Below are positions 5,101 to 43,416 of a stretch of 64,000 bases of DNA, one piece after another. The stretch comes from Candidatus Saelkia tenebricola. GTDB taxonomy: Bacteria; Omnitrophota; Gorgyraeia; Kaelpiales; Kaelpiaceae. Under the pieces are notes generated by a model that saw only the letters and a program-made list of their open reading frames with translations, was not told where the DNA came from and made no database searches. How positions within the stretch are numbered: position 1 is the stretch's first letter; every line of letters begins with the position of its first letter. Both the position numbers and the translations under genes were made by a program. The stretch spans positions 119,344 to 183,343 of the forward strand of contig JAVCDA010000010.1 in assembly GCA_030765145.1 (NCBI GenBank), given 5' to 3'.

Positions 5101-6502
5101 ATATCTTATGCTCTGGCTCATGCTATGCGGTTGGCTGGCATTGATAATACCCGGAAGCCTAAGCATTCAAAGCAGTTTGCTCAGTTGGATTCTATTCTTA
5201 ACATCAGTATTGCTCATTATAGTACTTCCAAAATTCTTTATTCCCTTAACAAATACTATTTTAAAAGAGATAAAAACATTTAGTGGATTCTGTTTTATAG
5301 CATTCACTATATATTCAGTTATCATTACTAATGATATTATTACCCGTCACCCTCAATCTATAGTTTACTCTGCAATTTTAGGCTACAGTTATATCTTAAT
5401 CAGAAGCCTGTTTTTGCCCCTATTCTTTATTATCTTGGGCAGCAGAAGACGTCTTCGAGTAAGGCTAGGAACACTAACGTTATTACTTCTTTGCCTATTG
5501 CTGCTTTTAAACGGCTACGATATCCTGCATTATCTTTCTACAAGTAAAAAATTTTACTGGATCACTTTGCTCTTCTTGAGCCAGCTTCCTTACGTTTGGA
5601 CATATTTAATACCGATTTATGTTATTTCCAGATTCTCTCGTTTGGGCAAAAAACTATTTTCTAACTTAAAAGAAGGCGCAAAAGAACTTTTAGCAACCAC
5701 ATCAACACTTTTGATGCATTTAGTTTACGAGCCCATTCATATCATTAGAGTATTTCTAATGCTTATCAAAAAACCTTTTTCAAAAATAGCTTGGTTTCCT
5801 CAAAGCTACTTTGACAGAATAGCAGCTAACATCACTTCCCTTCCCCGTGCCTATTGTTGTTTTTACCTGCCGCCATTATTTTGTTTGATCTTTATTATCA
5901 TCCCCTTAAAGCTGCATATTTTACCTCCTCAAATCCTTTCTTTGGGCTGGCCAATATTTATCTGGTCCTGGCTTTTAGGACCATTTTGGGCATACTGGAC
6001 ATGCAGGCACAGAAAGAACCTGCATAGAATTATTCCTTCGACTCTAATTATACGCCAAGTACTAAATCAATCTCTTGTCTTTACTGATACAAACCCTACA
6101 AAATTTAATAAAATCTTAGCAGACCTGCCTTACCAAATAGATGAGGAAGAGAAAATCAGGCTATATCTTTACTTCTTTACCGAAAAAACTCGCCTTATGC
6201 TCCCTAAAAAGAACCGAAACATATTAGACCGGATTGCTAACAAAACGGCGCGCATATCTTCTGATGCCAGAGTAACTGACTGGGAAACACTATCTGAATT
6301 CTCACGCGTAAAAATAATCAAGCAATTCCGAAAATATTTAGACAAAGATTTGCTTAAACAGATAAGTTTTTACAGTGATCTTCTTTTTAACATGCTCAAG
6401 AAAGGTTGGGCAGAAGTTGAGTGGCAAAATCTTTCCGAAACAGAGCAGTCCCAAATTATAAATACTCTGAGGCAAAAACACGCATTCAATCCCGAATTTT
6501 AA
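2132..6502 (+). CDS. giant polytopic membrane protein (1456 aa), unknown function
   Basis: N-terminal 3-4 hydrophobic helices, a soluble region of about 900 aa, a C-terminal block of about 8-9 TM helices (roughly aa 1000-1300) and a soluble tail. Translationally coupled to the upstream ORF. Confidence 0.55.
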   Translation: MQILITSFNLAGWFIIIVLIKELLNAIFDCFEFYRNTYIKNPTGWTKRKLRWYLLIHLPNELIASLVVFGYIFLLFNHRASWLFLIAFSGYLFKKIIQDPIYILHSYCLNFICRKEEIKPRNTALANIFPNAIYMPHLGYSESEIDQALSTLCLSYLNNKNWNTSLIYHSDNKNPDFILKALRKLKYLAKKLKIDNFIFLQRDISSHEKNFLGKPGAYLADYQLLSTGITHPVIYIEKEWDARVQFKCQLDTDSRIVVEKPHLPFLLPDKIESGFTHFIYYPHPKPGFYIKESLKLTTSKGRTFFTEVETKLHLISKINPKTRFLLHLGGIYTHNGDLILRPEEWTIQATGIITHKTTHPKLPLDPYQIIIQKTICLDGVKCFVDKDLNILNKELEIIIPHGEFSIKHHYQLYQRQNDFLYLVEDNFEPLKEKLIGEDFRRDPLNLLHKIPTEVMEEIETSDDFNYFEKKQLRKTGIWDSKNSFKNFKFGWEKEFLIKDTLIKNRCILKGGYYLIDADKIPLDIFHTPNMEIKTVLAQDNIYGLDKDEKIPLLTLKGDPVLNIDGKILVKAPYVEFFKESDTGFIVNEKDGFLYRLGMLYFCGEKNIYPVSKNVWELKKHLIYIEPASNNLIKKTLIASPGGYKLKNNSVILKKKLLSNPFSVFIENRMFKIKDPLSNKILSLDNCTLDEYGIWLDEKETELSLSEHLKFQAHYIFQEEIIAKHGEYTINDNFVETDGVKHPLGINICHENSLLKHQGQTLRASISFMIINQVDSDGEFLKDALCETNAILTEQLLLDEFEYGMIQPEISFANSSDSLFARLLSWAHEEFKFAERAFFNTYKEGNSYGKVSKALPLYIGNILFKESIPAIARTHDHWEAMHLRTLFQFSGKHKGARLIENVPSNFYSFLKRKQGWLTGDVLLLELESKTGTLISLLRSIKSFLSGRTKAARYWIQYAQIHRKMLKQSKKNYTALGLQRILTLRRTALSTTYLMLWLMLCGWLALIIPGSLSIQSSLLSWILFLTSVLLIIVLPKFFIPLTNTILKEIKTFSGFCFIAFTIYSVIITNDIITRHPQSIVYSAILGYSYILIRSLFLPLFFIILGSRRRLRVRLGTLTLLLLCLLLLLNGYDILHYLSTSKKFYWITLLFLSQLPYVWTYLIPIYVISRFSRLGKKLFSNLKEGAKELLATTSTLLMHLVYEPIHIIRVFLMLIKKPFSKIAWFPQSYFDRIAANITSLPRAYCCFYLPPLFCLIFIIIPLKLHILPPQILSLGWPIFIWSWLLGPFWAYWTCRHRKNLHRIIPSTLIIRQVLNQSLVFTDTNPTKFNKILADLPYQIDEEEKIRLYLYFFTEKTRLMLPKKNRNILDRIANKTARISSDARVTDWETLSEFSRVKIIKQFRKYLDKDLLKQISFYSDLLFNMLKKGWAEVEWQNLSETEQSQIINTLRQKHAFNPEF

Positions 6503-17382: not shown

Positions 17383-17448
17383 AATAAGCTTATTAATACC
17401 ATTGTATAAATTTTAGAACAATTTGATCTGTATGTCAAATAGAATTTA

Positions 17449-18655
17449 CTAATCAGATAACATAACTGAATCATTTTCGGCAATCTGCATCTTAGGTAAA
17501 CTAAGTAGAATACTGGCTGCAGAGGTAACCTCTCTGACATCAATGACTTGAAGCTTAGCGATCAATGTGTTGCCTCGGTATATGGAAAATCCCATACCAA
17601 TTTGCACCCCATCTCTTCTGCCAATATCGATGATTATAAAACCTTCCTCTACATTAACAAAGACAACTCTTCCTTTAAGTAGCTCGTCTTTAATTTCTAT
17701 TCTGGGTAATTCTACAGCTTCGCCTTCAGTATCGTAATTTAGTTTTTTTATCTTTTCCAATGCCATCTCAAGATCCTGTTTTAATTTTGTAACCTCTAAC
17801 ACTTCGTCTTCCAAAACTCGATTAATATATCCAATCCTTTGATTGAATATTTCTTTTTCTTTTTTCTCTTTTTCGACATTCTGTTCTAACTGTGTAATTC
17901 TTTCGCTTATTTCCTTTTTTCTGTCCTGCGCCTGTGCAACCTTCATCTGAAGCGTATTTTTATCTCTTTGCATTTCTTCCACCTGCTTTATATATGAAAA
18001 CTTCTCTTTCTTCTCCTGCTCCAAAGATGCGCTTAAGGAAGACACTATCTTTTTAGTATCCTGAAACTTATTTTCTAAATTTTCTTTTTTATCCAATAGA
18101 TCATTTACAATATTATTTAAATTTTCTTTCTCCTTCTCAAACCTTGAAATCTCGCTATCTTTTTTCTCTAAAAGTCTTTCCAAACTACTAAGCCTTAATT
18201 CTAGATTGGATTTCTCCCGCAACAAATTTGACCAGAAACTGTCATCACCTGTGTTATTGTATTTTATATTCTCTTGGCTTGTAAAACTTGCTTTGACATC
18301 ATTCTTCTCCCGTACTAATCTAGCAACACTTTCCCGTAACCGCATATTTTCATCAGCCAGCTCCTTGAAGTTGTTTTCAGAAATAAGTTTTTCCTCCTCC
18401 ACTTTCGACAGATGTGTTTGATACTTATTAAGATTGGCCTGTATTTTTTCAATCTCTGACTTAAACTTGTCGAGATCAAACTCCAAGTCTCTATTTGTTT
18501 GATACCAAAGCACTTTTTCTTCTGTGTATCTGGAATAAATTTTTCTATTCTCTAACCCAAGCCAAACGGCAGAAATAACAGACACGCTTAAGAGCGTACC
18601 GCATAAAGAATAAATTACTGTTTTTACTGAGTCCGACATTTTCATATTGTTCTTG
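17449..18655 (-). CDS. membrane-anchored coiled-coil protein with a C-terminal small beta-rich module; last gene of the RND efflux operon
   Basis: Start taken at MKMSDSV, giving a 14-nt overlap with the upstream RND gene; the ORF-track start at 18792 lies inside that gene. One N-terminal TM helix, then about 280 aa of heptad-rich Glu/Lys sequence. The C-terminal GRVVFVNVEEGFIIIDIGRRDGVQIGMGFSIYRG block resembles the C-terminus of the OMF. Confidence 0.6.
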
Positions 18656-21600
18656 GTTTTGATATCCGCAAAATTTTTGTTACAACATATCGTACGTCTT
18701 CCATTATTATATACACACAGGGAATAACTAAAAGGGTTAAAATTGTTGAAACGCTCATCCCTCCAATAACAGTCTTTGCCAAAGGCGACCATAAATTGGC
18801 AGATTCGCTCCTGTCCACCGCCATGGGGATTAAACTACAAATTGTAGTTAACGATGTCATAAATATCGGTCTTATCCTGCTTTCGGCTCCTAAGAGCACT
18901 GCTTTCCTTAATTCCATCCCTTCTATTCTTAAAAGATTTATGTGATCCACCATAACTATAGCGTTATTAACAACAATACCTCCCAGCATTAACATGCCCA
19001 TCAACGCACCAATATTAATCGATGTACCAGTATAGTAGAGCGTAGGGATTACACCTATCGCCGCCAAGGGAACTGTAGTCATGATGATAAGGGGCTGAAT
19101 ATATGATTCGAAGAGAGACGCTAAAACCAAGAAAATCAGAATTAAAGCTACCCAAACTGCAAAGTTCAATTGCTTGTTATTCTCTTCCATCAATTCATAA
19201 TCTCCGCTAAAGCGATGTGAGTAATCATCCGGCATTTTAAAATCGCGAAGCGCTTCTTTGGATATTTCAATTGCCTTATCTAAAGAAAGAGCACCCCTAT
19301 TAGCGCTAACCTGAACCATTCTGGATTTATTCTTATGCCAAATCTCGCTAGGCGCAATATCAAATTTAAGATCTGCGATTTGCTTGAGAGGAACCTGAAT
19401 TCCGTTGCTGTTTACAAAAGTAAGGTTCTTTAAGTCTTTAAAACTATCTCGGCTTTCTTCTTCCATCCTCACCACTATCTCTACCTCTTTAGTCTTTGTA
19501 TGAAAAAAGGAGGCCCGCAAACCTCTTATTTTTCCATGCAACTGGTAGGAGATATCCTGGATAGTCAGCCCGTAAGTGCTTGCCTTATCTTGATCTATCA
19601 AAACACGAATCTCAGGCCTACCTTCTCTCATCCTTATCTTCTGATCCGTAATGCCTTCAACCGTACTTAATTTCTGCGCTATGCCCATGGCTATCTGCTT
19701 TAAAACATCATAATCATAACCATTTATATCTATAAAAATCTCGCTACTACCTACCTCCTGAGGCAATTCAAAATAAATAAAAGCGTCAAACTGTTTTGCT
19801 ATCTCATCCATCTTAGGGCGTAATTCCGTTATAATATCATCCGTCATCCGATACCTTTGAGAGAGAGGTTTTAGTTTTACATATACTTTCGAAGACCATC
19901 TTTCTATGCGAGAAGAAACAGTTTTAATCTCAGGAACTTCTCTCAAAATGCGCTCTACCATCGCAACAGCCTTATCAGACATCTCAAGGCGAGCACCCGT
20001 AGGCAATTCTACATGAGCGGTAAACTTGTTAAGTTCGGTAATGCCAATAAATTCCTTCCCTATTTGATTCCATAATGGCAACACAATTAAAAACACCGCT
20101 ACCATAAAAAACAAAAACTGATACCTTAATCGTAAAAAGCCACCCAATAGTTTTCTGTAAAATCTTCTGCTTTTTCTCACCTTGTCTTTACGCTTATTGA
20201 TAAATGGAATACCTCGACCAAGCTCCACCATAGATGAGGCTAAAGGCACCAGCGTTAACGCAACAAATAAAGATGCCAGCAAAGAATATACTACAGTCCA
20301 AGCCAAACCGCTATAAAGAATACGCATCTGTTTGCCTACAAACATAATTGGTAAAAATGCAACTACAGATGTAATGGTAGAAGCAACAATTGCAAGACTA
20401 ACTTCCTGCGCTCCATTTAAAGCTGCTAAACGCTTGTTAGCACCTGCCTCCTTTTTTTTAAAAATATTTTCTAATACAACGATTGAAGAATCCACCAACA
20501 TTCCTATCCCAAGTGCAAGCCCTGAGAGAGTCATAATATTTAAAGTCAAACCCTGCATAAACATTATTGTAAACGTTGCCATAACAGAAATTGGAATCGA
20601 AAGTGCAATAATAAAAGTCGGCGGCATATCGTGTAAAAATAACAGCAACACTATTACTGCCAGTGCACTGCCAAACATCAGAGATTTTCGCACAGTATCT
20701 ATGGCTTCTTGAACATACTCCGCCTGCTGGAAAGTAGGCCTGATGATCACGTCTTGAGGGATGATTTTTCTTATTTCCTCAAGTTCTTTGACTATCAACT
20801 TATTAACTTTGATAGTATTAGCCGTGGATTCTTTTTGAATATAAATGGAGACTACCGGACGAGCATCTACCCTTGATAAATCCATCGGGTCCAAAAATGA
20901 ATCCTTTATCTGAGCTACATCTTGAAGGCGTATCACAGAGCCCTGGGGTGTGAAACCCACTCCGATTCCTTTGATATCTTCTATTGTATTGAACTGCCCT
21001 AACAGCCTTATTAAGTACTCAATGCGTTTGCTTTCCAAATCACCGACTAAAATATCCAAATTGTTAGCTCCGACCATATCAATTAACTGCCCCAAAGATA
21101 TGTTGTAGGCTCTTAATGTTGATTCTTCTGTTTCTACTAAAATCTTTCGCTCTCTACCACCTGCAACCTCAATATTTGCTACCCCCTCCAGTCTTTGAAA
21201 CCTTGACTTAACTTTTTCGTCAACAATTCTGCGTAACATCTCCGGAGTATATTTTTCTCCGGTCACAGCAAGTATAACAATCGGAACATCAGTCTGCTGA
21301 TACCGAGCAATAACGGGCTTTTCAATTTCTTTGGGTAATTTATCTTTGACCCTGCCAAATTTTTCTCTCACCTCCAAAGAAGCAAAATCCATATTGGTCC
21401 CCGGCTCAAACTTTAAAATTACCCGCGATTCACCCTCTTCGGATATTGCAATCAATTCTTTCAGATTACTAACATCGCTCACCGCTTCTTCAACCGGCTT
21501 TGTGACCAAGCGTTCAACATCCGGAGATGGTATCCCACCTCTAATCCGTATAATAATACTAATGGTGTCATAGCTGTAATTGGGCATCAACTCTACTGGT

Positions 21601-21695
21601 AATCGAACTAAAGCAATATACCCGATAAGAACAATGCCTAAAAAAATCATTGCCATTGTAATCGGCCGTTTAATCGCAACGCTTGCTAATCCCAT
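18642..21695 (-). CDS. efflux RND transporter permease subunit (AcrB/HAE family), second of a tandem pair
   Basis: 1017 aa, 12-TM RND architecture with large periplasmic loops; conserved RND motifs. Confidence 0.9.
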   Translation of the reverse strand: MGLASVAIKRPITMAMIFLGIVLIGYIALVRLPVELMPNYSYDTISIIIRIRGGIPSPDVERLVTKPVEEAVSDVSNLKELIAISEEGESRVILKFEPGTNMDFASLEVREKFGRVKDKLPKEIEKPVIARYQQTDVPIVILAVTGEKYTPEMLRRIVDEKVKSRFQRLEGVANIEVAGGRERKILVETEESTLRAYNISLGQLIDMVGANNLDILVGDLESKRIEYLIRLLGQFNTIEDIKGIGVGFTPQGSVIRLQDVAQIKDSFLDPMDLSRVDARPVVSIYIQKESTANTIKVNKLIVKELEEIRKIIPQDVIIRPTFQQAEYVQEAIDTVRKSLMFGSALAVIVLLLFLHDMPPTFIIALSIPISVMATFTIMFMQGLTLNIMTLSGLALGIGMLVDSSIVVLENIFKKKEAGANKRLAALNGAQEVSLAIVASTITSVVAFLPIMFVGKQMRILYSGLAWTVVYSLLASLFVALTLVPLASSMVELGRGIPFINKRKDKVRKSRRFYRKLLGGFLRLRYQFLFFMVAVFLIVLPLWNQIGKEFIGITELNKFTAHVELPTGARLEMSDKAVAMVERILREVPEIKTVSSRIERWSSKVYVKLKPLSQRYRMTDDIITELRPKMDEIAKQFDAFIYFELPQEVGSSEIFIDINGYDYDVLKQIAMGIAQKLSTVEGITDQKIRMREGRPEIRVLIDQDKASTYGLTIQDISYQLHGKIRGLRASFFHTKTKEVEIVVRMEEESRDSFKDLKNLTFVNSNGIQVPLKQIADLKFDIAPSEIWHKNKSRMVQVSANRGALSLDKAIEISKEALRDFKMPDDYSHRFSGDYELMEENNKQLNFAVWVALILIFLVLASLFESYIQPLIIMTTVPLAAIGVIPTLYYTGTSINIGALMGMLMLGGIVVNNAIVMVDHINLLRIEGMELRKAVLLGAESRIRPIFMTSLTTICSLIPMAVDRSESANLWSPLAKTVIGGMSVSTILTLLVIPCVYIIMEDVRYVVTKILRISKPRTI

Positions 21696-21698
21696 AAA

Positions 21699-24600
21699 TT
21701 ATCCCTTAAATTCATACCACCTACCCGGACCATTAGGCCCTTTAGCAATTATTATTTCTTTGTCCACCAGGTCTTTAAGGTCTCTCGCCGCGGTGGCAAC
21801 TGAAATTTTAAAAATATCCTGACATTGCCGCCGCATAATTCTACCGTGTTGCTTTATATACAATAAAACTTCTTTTTGTCGTTTGTTTAATTCCGGGAAC
21901 TTCTTGAAAACATCCCTCTCTAACACTTTTTCCTCTATTTCAGGTTCAGATAATATAATTTTTTCTTCCATTATTTCTTGGACAACTTCTATTGTTTTTG
22001 CTTTCTCAAGAGGAGATTCTTTTTCGATCATTTTTACCGCAACTAAATATAGCGCCGGGACAACAAACAATGTAAGAATCGTTGAAGAAGATAACCCTCC
22101 AATAACAGCAATCGCCATAGATGCTCTTAGCTCTGCTCCTTCACTTAAACCTAAAGCTAGAGGGATTAGGCCTAACGTAGTAGTGAGTGCAGTCATTAAT
22201 ATTGGCCTTAGCCTATGTTGGCACGCTTCTATTGCCGCATCATATGGATTAACACCTTCTGCCCTTAGTCCATTAATACGGTCTAGCAATACGATGCCGT
22301 TATTAACAACAATACCTCCTAAAATTATCACACCTAAAAATACCACTATATTTAAAGTGGTGCCTGTAAGTAGAAGGGCTATACTTATTCCGATTAATGA
22401 AAGTGGCACTGAAAACATTATTACGAAAGGCTGCCAAAGAGACTCAAACTGTGCCGCCATAATCATATATACCAAAACAATAGATAGTATAAGAGCAAAC
22501 ATTAAATTCTTGAACGATTCTGCCATTTCTTTTTTCTCTCCGCTCATTTTAACCATATAATCTTTTGGCACTTCAATTGCCTCAATAACATTTTCTATAT
22601 CCTTGATAATTTCACTGAACCTTCTTTTATAAACATTGGCGGAAACCACAACAGTCCTTTCTTGGTCTAAACGTTTAATTTGGCTGGGCCCAATTCCTTT
22701 TGCAAGATAAGCAACATCGGCTAGAGAGACTTCCACCCCTAAGGGAGAATGAATCAAAATATTTCTGACTTTAGCTATATTTTCTTTATCTTCTTCCCGA
22801 AGTCTTGTTCTGATATCATATTCCCTGCCTTCTTCTTTATATTTTGACGCTACATACCCTTTAATTGCAGCCTGAGTAGCCAAAGAAATACTGTTAACCG
22901 AGAGATTATATAGTGCAGCTTTTTTCTTCATTACATTCACTTTTATTTCAGGCTGAGCCGGAGCAAGGTCACTCTTAATATCGTATAAGCCGGAAATATG
23001 TTCAAACCGAGCGATTAAATTCTCAGAAAGAGTTCTTAAGGTGTCTATCTCCTTCCCTTTTAGCTCTATGGTAACAGGCTTACCTCCCTGCATAGCAGCC
23101 TTAAAAATTGTCTCCTGTAAAATATATTCTATTTCCGCCTTTTCTAAATCAGTACCTATTAAATCTGTTTGCAATTGCTGAACCACTCCCTGACTCTTTC
23201 TGTATTCTGCGTCTCTTTTAGACATCTTTTTAAGATTGACGACAATTTGTGCTTGATGTGAGCCCATAGTTGCCACAGCTCCGCCATACGCTTTTTCCTT
23301 ACTAGAACCAATTGTCACACCTACACCTTTTATGTCTGGATAACCGAGTAAAATACGCTCTATTTTTTTAACAACTCCATCTGTAACTTCAATCCTGCTA
23401 CCTGTAGGCATATCTATCTTAATCAAAAATTCACGCTGATCTACTTTGGGCATTAATTCTCTATCAACCGTATTCAGCAAGTAAAAAGCACCCATTGTTA
23501 TCAAGATGATAATTGCAAAATAAAAATATTTGACTTTAAGAAAAGCTTTCAGGCTCCGAGCATATGAAGATTGCAATATCCGCATCCAAGCCCATTCTTT
23601 TCGAACAGTCTTTTCGGTTTTAACTTTAGCTGCAAGTCTTGGGATTAAAGATAACGCTACAGCCAATGATGCTAAAAGCGCAAACGTTACGGTAAAAGCT
23701 AATTCTCTGAAAAGTTGCCCCGCAACTCCTTCTACAAACATAAGCGGCAGGAACACAGCAATGGTTGTAAAGGTAGAAGCTGAAATTGCAGTGGCTACCT
23801 CACTAGCTCCAGAAGATGCCGAAAGAGATGGAGATTCACCCATCTGTCTATGGCGAAAAATATTTTCAATAACAACAATTGCATTATCAACCAACATTCC
23901 TACTCCAAGCGCAAGCCCCCCTAAAGACATTATGTTTACCGAAAGACCTCTGAAATACATCAAGCTAAAAGTAAGCAGAATTGAAATAGGAATTGAAAGC
24001 GCAACTATAACAGAGCTGTAAATGTTCATAAGAAACAAGAACAAGACTATAAATGCCAATACTCCGCCTTGAAAAGCTGCGTCTCTCACCCCATTTATAG
24101 AATCTTCAATAAATTTGGACTGATCATACACAATCTCTATTTCTGCTCTACCTTTAATCCTTTCTCTAATTTCATCCAATTTTTTATTAACATCTTTAAC
24201 GACTTTTATTATATTGGCTCCTGCCTGCCTCTGAATTCTAATTGAAATATTTTCTCTTCCGTTATACCGCGATATGTTAGTTAAATCTTTCAACGAATCA
24301 ACAACTTTTCCTAAATCCTGAACATAAATAATTCTTTTATCAGATGATTCTCCTTTCATCTGCCTAATATATTCTTCATATTGCGTTTTAGGTGGGTCAA
24401 CTTCCTGCACATCAACAACTACATTTCTTATTTCTTCGACAGCCTCAAATTCTCCCATCGTTCTAATCATGTATTCATAGAACGTTTCTTTTATTGTCCC
24501 GGCAGGAAAAGTAAAATTAGTTTGCTTAATTGCTTCGGCAACTTTTAAAATCGGAATTTTATTGGCATATAATTTACCTTGATCCAATTCCACTAAAATT

Positions 24601-25145
24601 TCTCTTTCTCTTCCCCCCACAATACCGGCCGAAGCTATGCCTTCGATTTTTTCAAGCTCATCTTTGATTTCTTTTCTGCACAATTCCCGCAATTGCCTGG
24701 ATGGTATATCACCTTTTACAGAAAGAATCGCAACCGGAATTTCAAAAGGATTAAACTTCATAACAATCGGATCTTCAGAGCCTAAAGGCAATCTCTCTTT
24801 AACGAGATCAATCTTTTCTCTTACACCAAGTGAGGCAAAATCCATATTGGTGCCCCAATCGAAATCTAAGATTATAAGCGATAAACCTTCTTTAGAAAGA
24901 GAGGAAATTTTTTTAAGCCCGTTTACCGTTCCTACCGCTTCTTCCATTATTTTTGTTATTAACGTTTCTACTTCCTCAGGAGAAGCATTCTCATAAGTCG
25001 TAACAATCGTAATTTGCGGATAGGAAATCGAAGGGTACAATTCCTGGGAGAGCTTCATCCAAGAGATAACACCTAAAAGCCCTATTCCTAAATAGAACAT
25101 TGTAATTGTTACTGGTCTCCTAATAGAAAATTCAGGCAGGTGCAT
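21699..25145 (-). CDS. efflux RND transporter permease subunit with about 105-aa C-terminal cytoplasmic extension resembling a winged-helix DNA-binding domain
   Basis: 1148 aa. RND core through about aa 1040. The tail ...KRQKEVLLYIKQHGRIMRRQCQDIFKISVATAARDLKDLVDKEIIIAKGPNGPGRWYEF has an HTH-like pattern seen in Fic/RecG-type wHTH tails. Confidence 0.85.
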   Translation of the reverse strand: MHLPEFSIRRPVTITMFYLGIGLLGVISWMKLSQELYPSISYPQITIVTTYENASPEEVETLITKIMEEAVGTVNGLKKISSLSKEGLSLIILDFDWGTNMDFASLGVREKIDLVKERLPLGSEDPIVMKFNPFEIPVAILSVKGDIPSRQLRELCRKEIKDELEKIEGIASAGIVGGREREILVELDQGKLYANKIPILKVAEAIKQTNFTFPAGTIKETFYEYMIRTMGEFEAVEEIRNVVVDVQEVDPPKTQYEEYIRQMKGESSDKRIIYVQDLGKVVDSLKDLTNISRYNGRENISIRIQRQAGANIIKVVKDVNKKLDEIRERIKGRAEIEIVYDQSKFIEDSINGVRDAAFQGGVLAFIVLFLFLMNIYSSVIVALSIPISILLTFSLMYFRGLSVNIMSLGGLALGVGMLVDNAIVVIENIFRHRQMGESPSLSASSGASEVATAISASTFTTIAVFLPLMFVEGVAGQLFRELAFTVTFALLASLAVALSLIPRLAAKVKTEKTVRKEWAWMRILQSSYARSLKAFLKVKYFYFAIIILITMGAFYLLNTVDRELMPKVDQREFLIKIDMPTGSRIEVTDGVVKKIERILLGYPDIKGVGVTIGSSKEKAYGGAVATMGSHQAQIVVNLKKMSKRDAEYRKSQGVVQQLQTDLIGTDLEKAEIEYILQETIFKAAMQGGKPVTIELKGKEIDTLRTLSENLIARFEHISGLYDIKSDLAPAQPEIKVNVMKKKAALYNLSVNSISLATQAAIKGYVASKYKEEGREYDIRTRLREEDKENIAKVRNILIHSPLGVEVSLADVAYLAKGIGPSQIKRLDQERTVVVSANVYKRRFSEIIKDIENVIEAIEVPKDYMVKMSGEKKEMAESFKNLMFALILSIVLVYMIMAAQFESLWQPFVIMFSVPLSLIGISIALLLTGTTLNIVVFLGVIILGGIVVNNGIVLLDRINGLRAEGVNPYDAAIEACQHRLRPILMTALTTTLGLIPLALGLSEGAELRASMAIAVIGGLSSSTILTLFVVPALYLVAVKMIEKESPLEKAKTIEVVQEIMEEKIILSEPEIEEKVLERDVFKKFPELNKRQKEVLLYIKQHGRIMRRQCQDIFKISVATAARDLKDLVDKEIIIAKGPNGPGRWYEFKG

Positions 25146-25173
25146 TTTTATTTTCCGCGGTTAATTAGCAGTA

Positions 25174-26424
25174 TTAAAATAATTTTTCCTGTGTTTCTAT
25201 GATTTTTATCCCGGTACCGGCTGAAAATCTTTTCATACCCGGAGTCTCTATAACAATCAGAGCGCCTTCTGTAAGCCCCTTTTTAATAACAGCATAATCT
25301 GTCGTAATATACTCTACGGTAACTGGAGCATATTTAATCTTTTCTTCTTCTATCATCGCAGCGTAATAAGCACCTTGTTGAATTGATACAGATGAACTCG
25401 GTACAACCAGAGCGTCTTTCTTTCTGAATACAGCAACATCTACCCGGGCAAACATTCCGGGTTTTAACAGTTTGCCTGGGTCTAAAACTCTGACCCTGAT
25501 GTTTAATGTGCGTGTTCTTTCATCAATTGCAGGGAAAACAGTTTCCACATAACCAAAAAACACTCTTGTGGGATAGGTGTCCACCTTGACTTTTACTTTC
25601 TGCCCGGATTTAATTTTAAACACATCTTTTTCTATGACCCCTATTTCTACAAATGTATTGGCGGCATCTAACAAAGTAAAAATAATGTCATTAGGGGTTA
25701 TAAATTCGCCGACATCTTTCTCTTTTTTGTTGATAATACCTGCTTGAGGGGCTTTCATATCAAGTTTTTCTAATTTGACCTTGCTTAGTTGAAGTTCTTT
25801 TTTGCTTATATCTATTTTTGCCTTGGATACTTCAAGCTCCGCCTGCAATTGATCCAGCCTGGCTTTTATAATCGCCCCAATTTCATAAAGCCTTTTGACT
25901 ACTTGATATCTTTTAAGAGCCGCTTTATATTCAGCCTCTGTAGCATTCAATTTTGCCTGAGCCCATTGAATTTCAAGCTTCACATCTTTTGAATCAAGGG
26001 TTGCTAACAAATCTTGTTTTTTGACTTTATCTCCTTCTTTAATTTTGATATTTTTTATTACCCCATTGACTTCAAATCTAAGCTCTATCTCCGGAATATT
26101 CCTAACAGTCCCTACCGCAGGAAGTTCATCGGTAAAATCCGTGAATGCAAGCTTATAAGCCTTAATGGGGATGCTTTGCTCCGGTTGCTGCGGCAGAAGA
26201 GATATCGGCGCTTTGGGTTCGGATTTTTCCTCTTCTTTTTTAAAAGGAGTTTGCTTTTTATCTGCCACTTTAGATGAAGCAGTCAAATCCGAGGAAGGAG
26301 CAAAAAGCCTACGCACACCGACAAACAGTAAAATTACAATAATAATGTTCACTGCAATGATAACTAAACTACGCAGGGTAAATATTTTTTTAATAACGGA
26401 TAAAATGTTGGTATTTTCTTTCAT
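25174..26424 (-). CDS. efflux RND transporter periplasmic adaptor subunit (HlyD/MFP family)
   Basis: N-terminal TM anchor, coiled-coil hairpin, lipoyl and beta-barrel segments. 4-nt overlap with the OMF gene. Confidence 0.85.
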   Translation of the reverse strand: MKENTNILSVIKKIFTLRSLVIIAVNIIIVILLFVGVRRLFAPSSDLTASSKVADKKQTPFKKEEEKSEPKAPISLLPQQPEQSIPIKAYKLAFTDFTDELPAVGTVRNIPEIELRFEVNGVIKNIKIKEGDKVKKQDLLATLDSKDVKLEIQWAQAKLNATEAEYKAALKRYQVVKRLYEIGAIIKARLDQLQAELEVSKAKIDISKKELQLSKVKLEKLDMKAPQAGIINKKEKDVGEFITPNDIIFTLLDAANTFVEIGVIEKDVFKIKSGQKVKVKVDTYPTRVFFGYVETVFPAIDERTRTLNIRVRVLDPGKLLKPGMFARVDVAVFRKKDALVVPSSSVSIQQGAYYAAMIEEEKIKYAPVTVEYITTDYAVIKKGLTEGALIVIETPGMKRFSAGTGIKIIETQEKLF

Positions 26425-28667
26425 TGTAATATCTCCACGTTATCTCCTATTCTCAATCCTTTAAAATCCCTGTCTATGCCTTTCTCCAGATAACAGGCTG
26501 CTGTGTTATTATCAATTCTAGCAGGAACAAGCAAAGCATATTCTTGGCCATTTCTATAAACCATGACTTTGCTGTTGGAACTTAACCCCTTGCCTTGACC
26601 AATATTGAGTATTGCCATTCCATACTGATTGTTAACTCCAATAATCCTTCCTTGAATACCCGTAGGAATAATTTGGGTTATTTCTTTCTTAAACTCAGGG
26701 AGCTTGAAAGGAGTGTAGCTTACACTCGTTGCAGGATGATTGCTGAAGTTTTCCCAAGCAGCAATAACAGGTTTTTCTGTCACAAGGCTCATATAGCTTT
26801 CCACTCCGCAAGCTTTGGAGATACTGGAAAGAGCAATGTAATAGCCCAGCAAAGCCCTGTTATAATTTACCTCTTCGTTGGCATAGTCTAAATACCCCTG
26901 CAAAAGCTCTGTGATGTTTGCCTCTTCTACTTTCATTCTACCTTCAGTAACTTTTAATCTTCTACTATGGAACTCCAATTTTTGAAGAGATGTTTCAATC
27001 TGAAAAAGAGAGGAGACATAATTTGCATATGATCTCTCAACTTCGGAAATAATAGATTCTTCCGTTTCCACTTCTTCGTTGACTGCTTTCAAAAATTCTA
27101 CGCGTGCTGTTTTTTCATCGGAAGCCATACTCAACCTATCAACAATAGACCATTCCAAAGATTTGGTAAAAGATTTTGTCGTGTCTTCTGTGCTAAACAT
27201 TCCCACAGGTCTATTCTGCTGCACCACCGAAGCATCCAAAGAGCTGTTGCCGATAGGTCTAGACACTTTTAATCCTAGATACCAGCTATCACGGAATTCT
27301 TCAGGTTCTGATTCATAATCTTCAGCTATTTTGCCGACTTTACCGGTCAAACTAAGATGAAATCTGTTTTTTGATTTTGCAATCTGTTCGTTCAAATTGT
27401 TGAATTGTGTTACTAATTGACGTATCTTAAGTTCCGACCTCTGTGTTTTAGCAATTCTTAAGGCCGTCTCTAATCCTATATTAACTTTTCCGAAAGGCAA
27501 CCAATTGACCAATGTAATCTCCTCGTCGCCAGGTAAATTTAACGTCTGCCTGAACGCTAACTCGGATAGAGAAAGTTCTTTCTGAGTCGAAACAAAAAGA
27601 AACTTTATCTGTTGATAAGACGAAGATAGCTGTTTATATTCAACCTCTGTAATCAAACCTTGTTGATATAGCAATTTGCCCATTGCTAATAATTTATTAG
27701 CTTCAGCCAATAGTTTATTAAAAGTGTCCCAGTTCATTCTGTTCAAAACCACATTGTAAAAATTTCTTTTAAGTTCCAGGGTATAATCTGTAGAAAGTTG
27801 CTGACGTTCCATCAAAGCAAGTTCCATATTAATCTTAGCCTGCTCCAGTTTATATTGCAGTTCGCCGCCATATGAAAGAGGTTGTTCAAATTCAATTTCA
27901 GCTGATTTAGATATAATATTTACCTTACCTGTTGTTTCACCTACCGTATCAACTAATCGAACAACTGCTGTGGGGAAAAACTGTCTTCTTGCTTCCTGAG
28001 CTTTCATTTGTGCAAGTTCATATTGTTCGGTTGCAATTTGTAAAGGCCTATAATTTTCAATTCCTATATCAATCCACCGCTGCCATCCCAGTATAGCCTG
28101 TTGCCATTCTTCTTCATCTTGAGGACCTATTTTTTGCTCAGGAGTAAAACTAAATGATTTAGGTAATTCTGTTTCTTCTTCTTTACTATTTTGACTAAAA
28201 ACCACTTCTTTAATTTCGGGAAAAATTATCTTAATAGTATTATCATCAGAGATAATATTATGTTTGAACTCCTTGCTGCCCTTAATAACAATCCCATCAA
28301 CCTTTCCTGCTTCACTATCTCCAGGTTCATAGCCCGGATAAAATTTTACAGTTGCATATTGTAATCCAAACGAGTTCATCTCTAACTTGAATTTTTCCAT
28401 ACAAAGTAAATTACTCCCAATAAGATCCACAAAAAGAGTTTGCTTGTCCTCCATCCAGTAAGTGTGATATAAAGGGCTGCTATTAAATGATATGGTTATT
28501 GCAAACTTTTTATCTAAAAACCCTTTTTGGATATCTTTAAGAATAACCGTATCATTAACATGATACGGTTGGGAATAAGCAAATGATACGGTTACTAAAA
28601 ACCAGATTACGAATGATACGGTTGTTAATTTCTGATTTTTTTTCTCTATCATTCTTAACATAACCAT
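26421..28667 (-). CDS. TolC-like outer membrane efflux factor with N-terminal AMIN-like extension and extra C-terminal beta module
   Basis: The central 430 aa show the two-repeat OEP/TolC pattern. The N-terminal 200 aa include an AMIN-like segment (FAITISFNSSPLYHTYWMEDKQTLFVDL). The C-terminal 110 aa (GRIIGVNNQYGMAILNIGQG...VMVYRNG) are similar to the C-terminus of the coiled-coil protein. Confidence 0.8.
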   Translation of the reverse strand: MVMLRMIEKKNQKLTTVSFVIWFLVTVSFAYSQPYHVNDTVILKDIQKGFLDKKFAITISFNSSPLYHTYWMEDKQTLFVDLIGSNLLCMEKFKLEMNSFGLQYATVKFYPGYEPGDSEAGKVDGIVIKGSKEFKHNIISDDNTIKIIFPEIKEVVFSQNSKEEETELPKSFSFTPEQKIGPQDEEEWQQAILGWQRWIDIGIENYRPLQIATEQYELAQMKAQEARRQFFPTAVVRLVDTVGETTGKVNIISKSAEIEFEQPLSYGGELQYKLEQAKINMELALMERQQLSTDYTLELKRNFYNVVLNRMNWDTFNKLLAEANKLLAMGKLLYQQGLITEVEYKQLSSSYQQIKFLFVSTQKELSLSELAFRQTLNLPGDEEITLVNWLPFGKVNIGLETALRIAKTQRSELKIRQLVTQFNNLNEQIAKSKNRFHLSLTGKVGKIAEDYESEPEEFRDSWYLGLKVSRPIGNSSLDASVVQQNRPVGMFSTEDTTKSFTKSLEWSIVDRLSMASDEKTARVEFLKAVNEEVETEESIISEVERSYANYVSSLFQIETSLQKLEFHSRRLKVTEGRMKVEEANITELLQGYLDYANEEVNYNRALLGYYIALSSISKACGVESYMSLVTEKPVIAAWENFSNHPATSVSYTPFKLPEFKKEITQIIPTGIQGRIIGVNNQYGMAILNIGQGKGLSSNSKVMVYRNGQEYALLVPARIDNNTAACYLEKGIDRDFKGLRIGDNVEILQ

Positions 28668-28683
28668 ATCATAACCGTATCAT
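28545..28683. repeat. cluster of six copies of the 11-bp motif AACCGTATCAT / ATGATACGGTT (both orientations) spanning the OMF start codon and first 40 codons
   Basis: Copies at 28545-55, 28560-70, 28583-93, 28613-23, 28662-72 (variant AACCATATCAT) and 28673-83. The first two form a 26-bp palindrome. Confidence 0.85.
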
Positions 28684-28786
28684 AAAGAATTTCTCAAAAT
28701 TCTGGTCTTATGTCAAGAGAAAAATTCAGTCTTATGCTTATATCATAAACGTTATAAGCACAAGGAAGGGATATTTCGTACGAACC

Positions 28787-29536
28787 CTATTCGGGGATTT
28801 GTTCAATACTTAACAATTCTTCCTGCCTAACCATGATATGCGCTAATCTTTCCAGCTCCCTTATTAATCGTTCCTTTTCTTTAGGGTCTTTTAGAGGCGG
28901 TATTTTTATGATTACTTTATTCTGTCCAAATATCACACTCACTAAAATATCAACTTCATACTCCAATAAAGTATCCTTCTGTTTAATTTCTTGGGGTATT
29001 TTTTCGATAACGCTCTTCGACTTTTGATCGGATACTGCTGATTCCTTGTCTATTTTTACTCTTAAGAGATATTGCTGACTTTGTCCAACATTGTCTTCCT
29101 GTTTTCTTTTGAAAGCAGATTGCATGATAATCGGGATAGATTCCTCTATCTCTTTTATTAAATCCGCAGCTTTAATTGTTCCTAATATTTCTTTATTTCT
29201 ACCCGTTTCTGAAAATTCAATTTCAATAGATTCAACACCAAAAACTTCTTGCGGTAAAATATACGCGTGATAATCTCTGCCCAACGGCGAGTCTACAGTA
29301 AAAGGCTGTTCGGTTCCAGCATAGGGATAATACAAGACTTCGCTTTCTACTTTCTTTAACGGAGAGTATATAGGCTTACTGAATTTGTCTTTGCTGCCCA
29401 AGCTATAATCCCATTCCACAGGTGGTGCGGCATACACCTTGTTACAGATGCATATAGAACTGGATAGAAAAACAGCAACGTGGCAAAAAACTTTCAGATT
29501 TTTCTTATAAGTGAGGCAATGCAATTTTATTACCAT
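28787..29536 (-). CDS. hypothetical secreted protein
   Basis: ORF with an internal signal-peptide-like segment (VFCHVAVFLSSSICICNKVYA), so the real start may be downstream of the track start. No family recognised. Confidence 0.45.
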   Translation of the reverse strand: MVIKLHCLTYKKNLKVFCHVAVFLSSSICICNKVYAAPPVEWDYSLGSKDKFSKPIYSPLKKVESEVLYYPYAGTEQPFTVDSPLGRDYHAYILPQEVFGVESIEIEFSETGRNKEILGTIKAADLIKEIEESIPIIMQSAFKRKQEDNVGQSQQYLLRVKIDKESAVSDQKSKSVIEKIPQEIKQKDTLLEYEVDILVSVIFGQNKVIIKIPPLKDPKEKERLIRELERLAHIMVRQEELLSIEQIPE

Positions 29537-31136
29537 ACTCTTTACGCAATTCTTTTAGAGTTTTTACTAACTCTTCTATCTCTTTTCTGCTACCGTCTGC
29601 ATTTAGGCTTTGCGCAGCTGCTAATAAGATATCCTCGTCTTCTGCGTTGTCGGTACCTACAATTTTCTGCCTGGCTTGCGTCAGCACATTAATCTTGGCA
29701 GCATCATAGTTAAGCCCGTCAATTATCACTTGCGTCGCAACATCCCAGCATGTTTGAACAAAGCCAGTCATATCGACTGCTTGCATAATATCACTTAGAT
29801 CGTCATCGCGCAAGGCTTTCCAGACAATTTCTGCATATTTCTTTGCCAGTGTTACATCCCCGCTAGTCCCAGGCATAATATTGGGTGATGTTTGACTTAT
29901 TGGGCTAAGCCCTGTTAAAGGGTCAAATTCATCCACTTCAACAATCCCTATTCTAAAGAAATCCTGACTACCGTCTTGCTCATGAACAGCTACCAAGGAA
30001 TTAACAACTCTGTCATTTTCATCGTACTCATAGAATTTATAAGAAGTAGTTACTCTATTGGGGGCTTGATCATCATTATAGTGTACTGCTTCAACTACAG
30101 AGGGCAAATATTTTAAACCTCCCTCCTGATCATAAGAAATATGAAAATCCAATACATTTGTGTCTTCCTCATAGCTATATGAGGTTTCACCGCTATCTAT
30201 AGTAACCAAACGGTGATAACTCCTAGCTTCTCTATACGAAAAATCCATATCTAAGACATCTTCAGTGATATATTGGGTGACACCCCATTGATCGCGAAGT
30301 TCCTGATACATCTTAAGTGCATAGCCAAAAGCATTAGATTCTTTATTATTGAAAGCCCACCAGTCTCCTGCACATTCTGAATATTTCATATAAAGGTAGG
30401 AAGGGGCATGATAAACATATGCCGTAGATGCATCATTCGAATCAATCTGTGCATAAGTTGGCGTCAATTGTTTGGAAAAAATCCAATCCGGAAAATGCGT
30501 GCTTTCGTCTCGAAGAGATACATGCAATGGCCTTGTCGTCACATTACCCAGCTTATCTTCGCTAGACATATTAAATGTAAGGGAAAAACCTTTGTAGGCA
30601 TGTTTGCCTGAAGTTTCTTCAATCTTTTTTATTACCTCTTCTAGATCCTCTTTGTTTTGGACAAACTTGTTAGCAAAATATTTCAATATTTTCGTATTAG
30701 TGCCCGAATATGTAATAGAACCGTCTTCTGCAATGCTTTTTCCAGGCGTAGCAGATCTAACAGGTTGATTAAAAAGCTCTGCACGCCTGTTTTCTATAAC
30801 TCTAAAACGCTCCCTGACATAAGTTAAAATCTGTAAAGCGGCACGTAATCCCTGATAGCTTTTTTTGGCATCTTCTCCTGTTTTTCTTTTTATCAGCATT
30901 CCGCGTACCTGCTGCTCTCTGTCAAGATATTCTTCCAAAGACAATTCCGGAGAAAGTGCTTTATAGATTTCTGCAATAGATCCAAATTCTGCTGAATCCA
31001 AGGGCTGCTCATTTGCAGTACTTTCATTAGCATAAGATGCTATATGATATGAAACCCCACCAACAAAAATAGACATAATTATAAAGTGTTTTAAAATGTT
31101 TTTCTTCTTCACATCATATTTATACCATATATACAT
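29505..31136 (-). CDS. hypothetical secreted protein (543 aa)
   Basis: N-terminal signal/anchor (IIMSIFVGGVSYHIASYA). No family recognised. Confidence 0.55.
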   Translation of the reverse strand: MYIWYKYDVKKKNILKHFIIMSIFVGGVSYHIASYANESTANEQPLDSAEFGSIAEIYKALSPELSLEEYLDREQQVRGMLIKRKTGEDAKKSYQGLRAALQILTYVRERFRVIENRRAELFNQPVRSATPGKSIAEDGSITYSGTNTKILKYFANKFVQNKEDLEEVIKKIEETSGKHAYKGFSLTFNMSSEDKLGNVTTRPLHVSLRDESTHFPDWIFSKQLTPTYAQIDSNDASTAYVYHAPSYLYMKYSECAGDWWAFNNKESNAFGYALKMYQELRDQWGVTQYITEDVLDMDFSYREARSYHRLVTIDSGETSYSYEEDTNVLDFHISYDQEGGLKYLPSVVEAVHYNDDQAPNRVTTSYKFYEYDENDRVVNSLVAVHEQDGSQDFFRIGIVEVDEFDPLTGLSPISQTSPNIMPGTSGDVTLAKKYAEIVWKALRDDDLSDIMQAVDMTGFVQTCWDVATQVIIDGLNYDAAKINVLTQARQKIVGTDNAEDEDILLAAAQSLNADGSRKEIEELVKTLKELRKEYGNKIALPHL

Positions 31137-31148
31137 ATAAAAATCAAG

Positions 31149-31727
31149 TTACCTGAGATAAAAATTATCGAAGTATGTCCGACCCCCTGTTTGATCAATA
31201 TACCGTTTGTCTATAAATACATTGATTTCAACGAGTTCGGATAAATTCTCCAACTTGAGGCTTTTCAAGGGGATTTCTACCTTATACCAATCATTCCCTG
31301 TTTTAGCGTTCATTACCGTTACGATTTTACCTTTTTTATCTTCAAAGGTTATCCCGATGATTTTGGAATAGCCTACTGCCGGCTCCCCTTTAACCCAGAA
31401 ACCAAAATATTGATACCCGCTAAAATCATATCCTGAAACATGGAGCCAGATTCCACCCACCAAATCATTGTCAGAGCGAAAATCGTAATCCAATGCGAAT
31501 GAATGACCCTCTTCCCCATATTTTACGAGACTGGACTTCGAGCCTACAAAGGTAGTATGTCTATCCTCCATAAATTCTTCCCATACACCGCCTTCAAATG
31601 TTTCCTGCTCAAAATCCTGTAACAGAAAAATCTTTTCCTTTGTTTCTGTCAATTCCTCTGTATACACTTTATCTGCGCAAAAAAGAAAAACTATTCCGAC
31701 CGTTAAAACAGCTATTCTTATATTCAT
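31149..31727 (-). CDS. secreted single-domain protein, third paralog of the CBM-like domain
   Basis: Signal peptide MNIRIAVLTVGIVFLFCA. Shares DYD(V/F), G.W......DFS.YQ.F.FWVKG and TYFDN motifs with ORFs at 14120 and 11487. Confidence 0.6.
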   Translation of the reverse strand: MNIRIAVLTVGIVFLFCADKVYTEELTETKEKIFLLQDFEQETFEGGVWEEFMEDRHTTFVGSKSSLVKYGEEGHSFALDYDFRSDNDLVGGIWLHVSGYDFSGYQYFGFWVKGEPAVGYSKIIGITFEDKKGKIVTVMNAKTGNDWYKVEIPLKSLKLENLSELVEINVFIDKRYIDQTGGRTYFDNFYLR

Positions 31728-41776: not shown

Positions 41777-42014
41777 TAGTTGTGTTGTTTTCTAATAAGT
41801 ATTTGTTTTATAGTATGTATTAGTAGTGTTTGTGTAAAAGTGGATAATAATATAAACATATATGTATCAATGGTTTATTGATAAAAGTGTATCTGTGTAA
41901 AATGTTGTTAAAAAGGTGGTTCTTTTTTTTATTGATGTATTTATCCACATATCCACATTTTATCCACAAGCAATCTATGTGTTTTTAAGGATCTTTTCCT
42001 CAAGTTTATCCACA
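41777..42014. other. candidate oriC: AT-rich unwinding region plus DnaA-box cluster
   Basis: Perfect TTATCCACA at 41941-49, 41960-68 and 42006-14. ATATCCACA at 41949-57. Inverted TTATCCACT at 41839-47. An AT-rich stretch at 41777-41940. Confidence 0.7.
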
Positions 42015-43324
42015 ATCTGTTTTAATTTATTTTCTTTTTCCCTTTCTATTTTTTGAACAGCATGTATGACCGTGGTATGATCTTTACCGCCAAAAGCACT
42101 TCCAATATCATTTAAGGAAGAATCCGTGTGTTTACGTATCAAATATATAGCCAATTGTCTGGGTAAAGTAACCGACTGTTTGCGAGATTTACTTTTAAGA
42201 TCTGCAAGTGAAATATTAAATAATTTTGCTACTTTTTCTTGGATATAAGGGATACTTACCCTACTGCTTTCTTCCTGCACCATATCACGTAAAACTTTTT
42301 CAACTAAAGGCAAGTCAATGCGCTCTTCAATTAAGGTTGCATGTGCGACAACTCTCAAGAGAGCACCTTCTAGCTCACGGATATTGGAAGAAATTTTTTC
42401 CGCAATATAGGAAAGCACGTCATTAGCAACTATAAGCTTAAATTTAAAAACTTTTTTTTGAAGAATAGCCAAGCGGGTTTCATAATCAGGTTTTTGCACA
42501 TCAACAACTAATCCCCAATGAAACCGAGAAACCAGACGTTCTTCTAAATCTGGGATTTCCTTAGGTGATCGGTCGCTGGAAATCACAATTTGTTTGTGAA
42601 AATCATAAAGAGCGTTAAAAGTATGGAAAAACTCTTCTTGCATACCTGCTTTCCCTGCTAGAAATTGTATATCATCGATTAATAAAAGATCGACGTTGCG
42701 ATATCGTTCCCTAAAACGAGCAGTACTGCGTGTTTGAATAGAGTGGACTAGTTGATTGGTAAACTCTTCGCTGGAAATATAATGCACTTTAAAGCGAGGA
42801 AAACGGTTAATAATCTCATGTCCGATGGCATGCAAAAGATGGGTTTTACCCAAACCAACCCCGCCGTATATAAAAAGCGGGTTATATGCTTTTGCCGGCG
42901 AAATAGTAATGGCAAAAGTTGCGGCATGGGCTAATTTATTGCACTCTCCCACAATAAATTCTTCAAAAGTATTTTGCGGATTTAACCGCTCTAAAACATG
43001 TTTAGAAATGACCTGTGTTTCTTTGTGTGTTGTCTTTATTTGTGGTGCAGTAATTTCAGAAGGGATTTTTGCTACGGTTAGTTTTATTTGGAATTCTTCC
43101 CCTGTCACGTCTTTTAAAAACAGCAAGATTTTATCCATATAACGTTCGCGAATCCAATTGCTGAAGAAAATATTAGGCACTGTAAATTCTAAAGTGTTAC
43201 CGGAGACTTCATGAACCTCAAGGGGTTCGATCCAGAATTTATATGTATGACTACCGAACTCGGTAATTAAACGTTCTTTGATTTCTTCCCAACAACTAAG
43301 CGTTTTTTTCTGCATAGGCGTCAA
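41975..43324 (-). CDS. dnaA: chromosomal replication initiator protein
   Basis: AAA+ Walker A GLGKTHLLHAIG and a C-terminal DnaA-box-binding HTH. Confidence 0.95.
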   Translation of the reverse strand: MTPMQKKTLSCWEEIKERLITEFGSHTYKFWIEPLEVHEVSGNTLEFTVPNIFFSNWIRERYMDKILLFLKDVTGEEFQIKLTVAKIPSEITAPQIKTTHKETQVISKHVLERLNPQNTFEEFIVGECNKLAHAATFAITISPAKAYNPLFIYGGVGLGKTHLLHAIGHEIINRFPRFKVHYISSEEFTNQLVHSIQTRSTARFRERYRNVDLLLIDDIQFLAGKAGMQEEFFHTFNALYDFHKQIVISSDRSPKEIPDLEERLVSRFHWGLVVDVQKPDYETRLAILQKKVFKFKLIVANDVLSYIAEKISSNIRELEGALLRVVAHATLIEERIDLPLVEKVLRDMVQEESSRVSIPYIQEKVAKLFNISLADLKSKSRKQSVTLPRQLAIYLIRKHTDSSLNDIGSAFGGKDHTTVIHAVQKIEREKENKLKQIVDKLEEKILKNT

Positions 43325-43360
43325 TTATAACAATCTACATATATAGTTTCAACATTTAAG

Positions 43361-43389: not shown

Positions 43390-43416
43390 GGCCCGAATAA
43401 TAGGAGGTGATTACAG

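Follow-up and report, generated by a model that had tools for sequence, protein, structure and literature searches.

A five-gene RND efflux operon in Candidatus Saelkia tenebricola with a coiled-coil gene joined to it in one clade, a permease-winged-helix fusion and a conserved 11-mer array

Is a protein encoded at the 3' end of an RND efflux operon a part of the pump, or a neighbor that has come to share its transcript? The question is raised by a five-gene operon of Candidatus Saelkia tenebricola (Omnitrophota) on the minus strand (28667→17449) of a 64,000-nucleotide (nt) stretch of contig JAVCDA010000010.1, in the following termed the window, where the genes for an outer-membrane factor (OMF), an adaptor (membrane fusion protein, MFP) and two permeases, RND-A and RND-B, are followed by a fifth gene for a putative coiled-coil (CC) protein. 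RND pumps are among the best-studied machines of the cell envelope, and we know of only few accessory parts, namely small proteins such as AcrZ and separately encoded regulators. The answer to which we give about even chances is an MdtABC-type pump with decorated parts that is specific to one clade, with the CC protein as a recruited and co-expressed envelope scaffold rather than a stoichiometric subunit. The interest of the locus lies chiefly in two features that the original prediction for this DNA had overlooked, the fusion of a permease to a winged helix and a conserved array of an 11-mer at the head of the operon. The five genes are the following.

26421..28667, minus strand: OMF, 748 aa, with a Pfam OEP match only over residues ~196-640
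25174..26424, minus strand: MFP (adaptor), 416 aa, with an N-terminal membrane anchor; Pfam HlyD_D23, E 2e-32
21699..25145, minus strand: RND-A (MdtB-like permease A), 1148 aa; full-length match to ACR_tran (PF00873), E 1e-239
18642..21695, minus strand: RND-B (MdtC-like permease B), 1017 aa; full-length match to ACR_tran (PF00873), E 6e-229
17449..18645, minus strand: CC gene, 398 aa counted from M50; the open reading frame itself spans 18792..17449

The number of genes and their order, OMF, MFP, RND-A, RND-B and CC, were predicted correctly, as evidenced by the open reading frames and by Pfam and NCBIfam domains, and the tripartite RND operon as such stands as well, with ACR_tran, RND_mfp and OEP all recognized (RND_mfp at 208 bits for a cutoff of 94.9) and junctions of at most 28 nt among the OMF, MFP and permease genes. 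The original prediction had further described all genes as tightly coupled, with overlaps of 4, 3 and 14 nt, and this was only partly correct. OMF and MFP do overlap by 4 nt, but the 3 nt between RND-A and RND-B are a gap, RND-B and CC share a 4-nt ATGA overlap rather than 14 nt, and a 28-nt gap between MFP and RND-A had gone unmentioned. The true start of CC is either M50 (18645, 398 aa) or M52, the latter corresponding to the 396-aa NCBI model P0001, which is 100% identical. Note that the window runs outward from oriC in the order dnaA-dnaN-dciA-gyrBA … glmS … operon … SBP-ROK-CBM11-glycoamylase, where SBP denotes a sugar-binding protein; the common orientation of the operon genes alone therefore says little, and the overlaps are the informative feature. 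The whole block, OMF-MFP-RND-A (including its winged helix)-RND-B-CC, is kept in ten related loci, which is far beyond chance. Four metagenome-assembled genomes (MAGs) titled 'uncultured Planctomycetia bacterium' (L010, L011, L012, L016) carry clear orthologues of the block at 50-87% protein identity, and their titles are probably taxonomic mislabels.

Close CC homologues, with 41-69% identity, were found in ten loci of the Saelkia/Kaelpia clade, and in all ten the gene follows RND-B with an overlap of 4-22 nt or a gap of 1 nt. This includes L098, where CC overlaps or abuts RND-B even though the SBP-ROK genes downstream have given way to an oppositely oriented GT87 gene. CC is nevertheless the least conserved gene of the block, as the permeases retain 70-87% identity. 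More distant homologues of the same architecture (P0019-21, E 7e-12 to 3e-5) reside in other gene contexts, and when these served as seeds for a metagenome scan, 80 loci (L018-L097) were retrieved that were annotated by tblastn, clustering and Pfam and that represent 65 distinct CC groups in 822 kb. An OMF, an MFP or an RND permease occurs in none of these 65 groups. Among the 47 groups whose upstream DNA is long enough, 35 have a gene for a ROK protein of the NagC/Mlc-like type directly upstream of CC. In 49 loci the gene immediately after CC encodes a LacI-family protein, and genes for ribonucleotide reductase, phosphoglycerate mutase and GidA come next. With the LpxL-like, adenosine kinase, Lnt and SecA genes found further upstream, the order conserved in other Omnitrophota reads SecA-Lnt-adenosine kinase-LpxL-ROK-CC-LacI-ribonucleotide reductase-phosphoglycerate mutase-GidA, while one CC subclade shows the arrangement ROK-CC-T2SSF-pseudopilins-T2SSK-PilN. 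In the P0021 subclade CC is also flanked by glycoamylase, SBP and ROK genes, and because the same three adjoin CC in the window, this argues for orthology of the two. Two further searches remained close to the query: a scan of genome contigs with a narrower alignment gave eight loci, all from the clade except L017, and a profile search with a 14-sequence CC alignment added close relatives only, as the word index was saturated.

The RND link of CC is thus clade-specific, and CC counts as a candidate component of the pump. The view of CC as a pump-specific accessory did not survive the comparison of 10 of 10 Saelkia/Kaelpia loci with RND genes to 0 of 65 distant groups, and of the outcome that the original prediction had itself named as speaking against it, CC genes beside unrelated genes and never with RND operons, one half was found: elsewhere the RND genes are absent, but within the clade they are always present. 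The simplest history compatible with these sequences would be that of one ancestral ROK-linked gene that, in a single clade, came to be attached to an RND operon at its 3' end. A protein that looks pump-specific in one genome can therefore belong to a family that is ROK-linked throughout the phylum, and a reading based on a single locus over-interprets the neighborhood.

In its architecture the CC protein combines an anchor, a long rod and a small terminal domain.

Residues 10-31: transmembrane (TM) helix
Residues ~35-305: helical rod, about 270 aa long, in which a D-x-FWSNLLREK-x2-LEL break is conserved
From residue 311: linker VELPRIEI
Residues 324-398, nt 17452-17676, minus strand: C-terminal β-barrel

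The single TM helix of the original prediction was confirmed. Its 400-aa coiled-coil protein compares to 398 or 396 aa by the true start, and only sub-threshold matches to coiled-coil models and to SMC rods point to the coiled coil itself. The C-terminal domain has a counterpart in the operon, on the OMF, whose composition is as follows.

Residues ~1-32: signal peptide
Residues ~40-155, nt 28203-28550, minus strand: AMIN domain
Residues ~196-640: TolC-like OEP core (Pfam OEP, E 6.5e-24 in two stretches)
From residue 651: linker motif YTPFKLPEF
Residues 670-748, nt 26424-26660, minus strand: C-terminal FlgT/MreC-type β-barrel

The C-terminal ~100 residues of the OMF are homologous to the C-terminus of CC (BLASTP E 2e-5), and the two barrels align end to end, including the LP-x-[IF] linker that precedes them. 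Within the window no protein other than the OMF of the same operon shares this barrel with CC. The extra C-terminal module of the OMF (~650-748) had been predicted; it is real and was kept in 12 of 12 orthologues. Its six-stranded barrel fold is that of a FlgT_C/MreC-type domain. Matches to the Pfam models remain below the gathering scores, with 17-22 bits against 27 for FlgT_C, both for the window protein and for homologues, and 17 bits against 28 for MreC in P0021 only, but their recurrence in several family members agrees with the barrel assignment. MreC proper was rejected as an identity for CC, which has no match to the model, a single barrel and no mre genes nearby. A third barrel architecture is found in L017 (2317-3411), in a 364-aa protein with a Sec signal peptide, the same β-barrel and then TPR-like helical repeats. 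Because the signal peptide of this otherwise unrelated Omnitrophota protein stands directly before the barrel, the domain family can be considered an exported one.

The AMIN-like extension at the N-terminus of the OMF likewise held, at the level of fold: an AMIN β-sandwich was recognized by structure straight after the signal peptide. The Pfam AMIN model (PF11741) gave no match to this region even at E<=10, and as the domain is recognized by fold only and not by the sequence model, it has to be regarded as a divergent member. AMIN is an established peptidoglycan-binding and localization module, and by analogy to AmiC and PilQ the copy on the OMF may bind peptidoglycan as well.

The two permeases share 35% identity over 1062 aa (BLASTP) and follow a single adaptor gene in all orthologous loci. 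For both of them the best PDB match is MdtB (9lyq), 40-64 bits above the next, and the NCBIfam scores are reciprocal, with RND-A favoring MdtB over MdtC (431 and 401 bits) and RND-B favoring MdtC over MdtB (410 and 381 bits). The gene order MFP-B-C is also that of mdtABC, and in this sense the predicted MdtBC-like pair of tandem permeases is well founded. These scores stay far below the equivalog cutoffs of 1584 and 1774, however, and at the level of sequence the label 'MdtBC-like' is fair for kinship and gene order as a nearest-family statement, not as membership. RND-A and RND-B would probably form a heterotrimer of the B2C type. In the membrane part, TM4 reads LVDN in RND-A (~416-422) and LVDS in RND-B compared to VVDD in MdtB, TM10 reads VVNN in RND-A (~944-950) and its RND-B equivalent compared to VKKN/SAKN, and the arginine of TM11 (the R of RPILMT) is retained in both. 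Judged by these residues the energy coupling of both permeases may be atypical, and their family membership is unaffected.

From these elements we propose the following arrangement. One adaptor and two paralogous permeases, probably a heterotrimer, would form a proton-driven tripartite RND pump that feeds a TolC-like channel. The termini of TolC-like trimers emerge at the periplasmic equatorial belt, and if this placement is carried over to the OMF, its AMIN domain and its FlgT/MreC-type barrel would surround the channel as a collar and hold it in place at the level of the cell wall. Permease A would expose its winged-helix tail to the cytoplasm. CC would represent, at this locus, an envelope protein found throughout the phylum, with a TM anchor, a long rod and a barrel. 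In this clade its gene, whose older neighbor is the ROK regulator, would have been appended to the pump operon at the 3' end and would be co-translated with permease B. As a periplasmic stalk CC may dock with its barrel on the same partner as the barrel of the channel, be it the wall or a ring of barrels. A physical contact between CC and the pump is conceivable in this arrangement.

Several observations weigh against this proposal. The periplasmic topology of the rod draws weak support from the exported relatives of the barrel, as the charges flanking the TM helix are ambiguous, with 2.1 K/R in the N-tail and 2.5 in the C-flank. The AlphaFold2 models were built on shallow alignments of 10 and 17 sequences. 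The canonical proton relay (D407, D408, K940 and R971 in AcrB) is incomplete, with the second aspartate of TM4 and the lysine of TM10 absent from both permeases. The RND-linked CC may be a paralogue rather than an orthologue of the ROK-linked family. Finally, the stop/start overlap of RND-B and CC was kept while CC diverged to 41-69% identity, and this also in L098, which has lost SBP-ROK; such retention points to selected co-expression and would fit a true subunit as well.

The latter point leads to the alternative that survives best, and that was the one of the original prediction: CC as an integral fifth subunit that would span the periplasm as a scaffold, add its barrel to a collar of OMF barrels and AMIN domains surrounding the channel and stabilize an assembly that reaches across the envelope. 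We consider this possible but distinctly less likely than a recruited scaffold. It would account for an overlap or abutment with RND-B in ten lineages that outlasted the loss of downstream synteny in L098, and for the homology of barrel and linker between OMF and CC, and the structural relatives FlgT and TsaP do form rings around envelope machines; it does not fit a phylum-wide family without RND genes in any of the 65 groups elsewhere, nor the status of CC as the least conserved gene of the block. Still more doubtful is the opposite extreme, that CC has no functional tie to the pump and either serves the envelope or cell shape in general, with an architecture like that of MreC/TolA, or is a partner of ROK, its position being a by-product of a rearrangement by which the RND operon entered a ROK/sugar-utilization neighborhood. 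The ROK-CC pairing in 35 of 47 groups, the wider conserved order from SecA to GidA and the SBP-ROK-CBM11-glycoamylase genes still directly downstream in the window all speak in its favor, but the coupling to RND-B persists, the same barrel sits on the OMF of the same operon and on no other window protein, and the best promoter-like site follows the CC gene instead of preceding it. That CC is a cytoplasmic SMC-like ATPase or a conventional second MFP paralog, the latter having been named by the original prediction as an outcome that would count against it, is highly improbable and effectively refuted by domain content, with coiled-coil-only SMC matches of 36-37 bits for cutoffs of 567 and 729, no ATPase head, a TM helix, no HlyD, lipoyl or hairpin match in Pfam or NCBIfam, and a BLASTP E of 0.019 to the MFP of the operon that reflects coiled-coil composition only. 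JGI annotations name CC homologues 'chromosome segregation ATPase'.

The first of the two overlooked features is found at the C-terminus of permease A.

Residues 1036-1148 (window ~21702-22040), minus strand: cytoplasmic tail of RND-A, with a DeoR-like winged helix at residues 1086-1148 (nt 21702-21890)

When the tail was scanned alone, HTH_DeoR (PF08220) was matched at 26.0 bits for a gathering score of 21, and the same model also matches orthologues, in all of which the tail is kept, and two distant RND fusions. The best PDB match is a MarR-family protein at E 0.2, such that no close relative has been solved. From its sequence the tail is predicted to be a domain of the DNA-binding type. An exhaustive search with it retrieved 307 proteins at E<=1e-3, and the seven long matches tested were without exception ACR_tran permeases of 1181-1509 aa with the winged helix at the extreme C-terminus; every named one among these seven comes from an Omnitrophota MAG. 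In the longer relatives a Pro/Glu-rich, apparently disordered tether of 300-450 aa precedes the winged helix, and the fusion recurs in several distinct clusters of Omnitrophota RND permeases (P0059, P0075). A literature search on RND-HTH fusions and on Omnitrophota efflux found nothing specific.

The second feature is a short DNA element that is repeated at two places in the window.

28487..28683, both orientations: array of the 11-mer ATGATAYGGTT with seven exact copies, covering the putative promoter, the OMF start codon and its first ~180 nt
44225-44487, both orientations: second cluster, with five exact copies out of seven, within the initial 400 nt of yidC, ~1 kb from oriC

With up to one mismatch the 11-mer has 17 matches in the window, where 2.5±1.6 are expected, and none of 100 shuffles reached this number. 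An invariant tandem pair at 28661-28683, the 23-mer ATGATACGGTTATGATAYGGTTA, straddles the OMF start codon. In an alignment of the regions upstream of OMF from five lineages, whose OMF proteins are 51-77% identical, this 23-mer is invariant save for the degenerate Y position. Four of the related loci (L098-L101) have 5-6 copies of the 11-mer each at the OMF 5' end, as compared to one single copy in ~0.9 Mb of other Omnitrophota loci. Within the genes, the copies at the operon head fall into the codons of the OMF signal peptide and linker and encode TVS, QPYH and NDTV, while those in yidC encode xDTV four times and TVS twice; because these copies hold fixed reading frames, what looks like conservation of some residues may serve the DNA motif rather than the protein. 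Note that the first tandem copy also reads as a four-codon mini-open reading frame, ATG ATA CGG TTA TGA (MIRL-stop, 28669-28683, minus strand); it ends just ahead of OMF, whose start codon begins 2 nt later. The OMF of L098 starts with the second tandem copy itself (MIRLK…).

Taken as RNA, the array region has a predicted fold of -57.6 kcal/mol (z -6.2) in which the start codon is base-paired, and a search of the operon against Rfam returned no match. We nevertheless favor a sequence-specific DNA-binding factor over an RNA switch, as a lead rather than a result. The RNA switch ranks lower because it is the 11-mer itself that two unrelated genes have in common, rather than just some complementary pair, and because the reverse copies in L098 lie upstream of the TTGACA element and are probably not transcribed. 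A literature search on the 11-mer likewise yielded nothing specific. As to its binder, the tail of RND-A is the only domain of a DNA-binding type in the operon, and its obvious competitor is the ROK protein encoded two genes downstream. That the winged helix of RND-A recognizes the arrays at the operon head and in yidC, and that the pump thereby regulates or tethers its own gene, is an idea that we regard as unlikely and put forward tentatively. If true, an RND transporter would be a membrane-anchored transcription factor or a DNA tether and, with a wall-anchored channel and a coiled-coil stalk, would connect the nucleoid with the inner membrane, the wall and the outer membrane.

Two promoter-like sites delimit the operon.

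28711..28716, minus strand: conserved TTGACA, a -35-like hexamer upstream of OMF, aligned in 5 of 5 lineages within an otherwise unconserved spacer
17410..17438, minus strand: sigma-70-like site TTGACA-17-TAAAAT with 11 of 12 matches, the best of the region, in the 66-nt spacer between the CC and SBP genes

By its conservation the hexamer is a candidate promoter element, and the second site, found by a consensus scan alone, probably indicates where the five-gene unit ends on its 3' side, with SBP-ROK-CBM11-glycoamylase following immediately 3' of the CC gene. Together the two sites are consistent with a five-gene transcript. A terminator-like hairpin was not found in the CC/SBP spacer around 17410-17438. 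Directly upstream of the operon, three genes (249, 543 and 192 aa; 28787-31727, minus strand) have no Pfam match, and all three start with a hydrophobic, signal-peptide-like N-terminus. L098 has homologues in the same positions, with 37% identity for the 543-aa and 31% for the 249-aa gene, and L099-L101 have genes of similar size there. A spacer of ~120-130 nt lies between these upstream genes and OMF. Elsewhere in the window, two large open reading frames of 710 and 1456 aa (12-6502, plus strand) are without Pfam match at E<=0.001. The window also contains an origin of replication: the GC skew flips sign at ~41900-44100, and dnaA (41975-43324, minus strand), dnaN, dciA, gyrB and gyrA point in one direction and yidC in the opposite one.

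The closest known systems for the pump itself are MdtABC-TolC of E. coli and MuxABC-OpmB, which share with it one adaptor gene followed by two paralogous permease genes, first B-like and then C-like. Unlike in these, the OMF is here encoded in the operon and decorated, RND-A has a winged-helix tail, D-N or D-S stands in TM4 and an asparagine replaces the lysine in TM10, and the family scores of 431 and 410 compare to cutoffs of 1584 and 1774. An N-terminal AMIN domain is shared by the OMF with the PilQ secretin and AmiC, although the copy on the OMF went undetected by the Pfam AMIN model. A fusion of AMIN to OEP has been recorded 'in at least one instance' (de Souza et al. 2008, PMC2572700), but here AMIN and a C-terminal FlgT/MreC-type barrel reside on one OMF, a combination that we did not find described. 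The barrel has structural relatives in FlgT of the flagellar H-ring and in TsaP, which surrounds the PilQ secretin, with sequence matches of 17-22 bits against 27; the Saelkia/Kaelpia clade, however, offers no flagellar or pilus context, and the barrel is likened to these proteins by fold. Compared to the bitopic periplasmic rod proteins MreC and TolA, CC has one barrel rather than two and a much longer rod, the MreC model of Pfam has no match to the window protein, and neither mreB/mreD nor tolQR genes lie nearby. In regulators of the ToxR/CadC type a transmembrane protein tethers a winged helix to the membrane. Here, the winged helix sits instead at the C-terminus of a 12-TM RND transporter, and relatives add the Pro/Glu-rich tether of 300-450 aa. 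Three departures from the known systems thus come together in one uncultured phylum, a channel with AMIN and FlgT/MreC-like domains, a permease-winged-helix fusion and an array of cis-elements at the operon head, and should the winged helix bind the array, the transporter would report directly to its own promoter, a mode of efflux regulation that has not been reported before.

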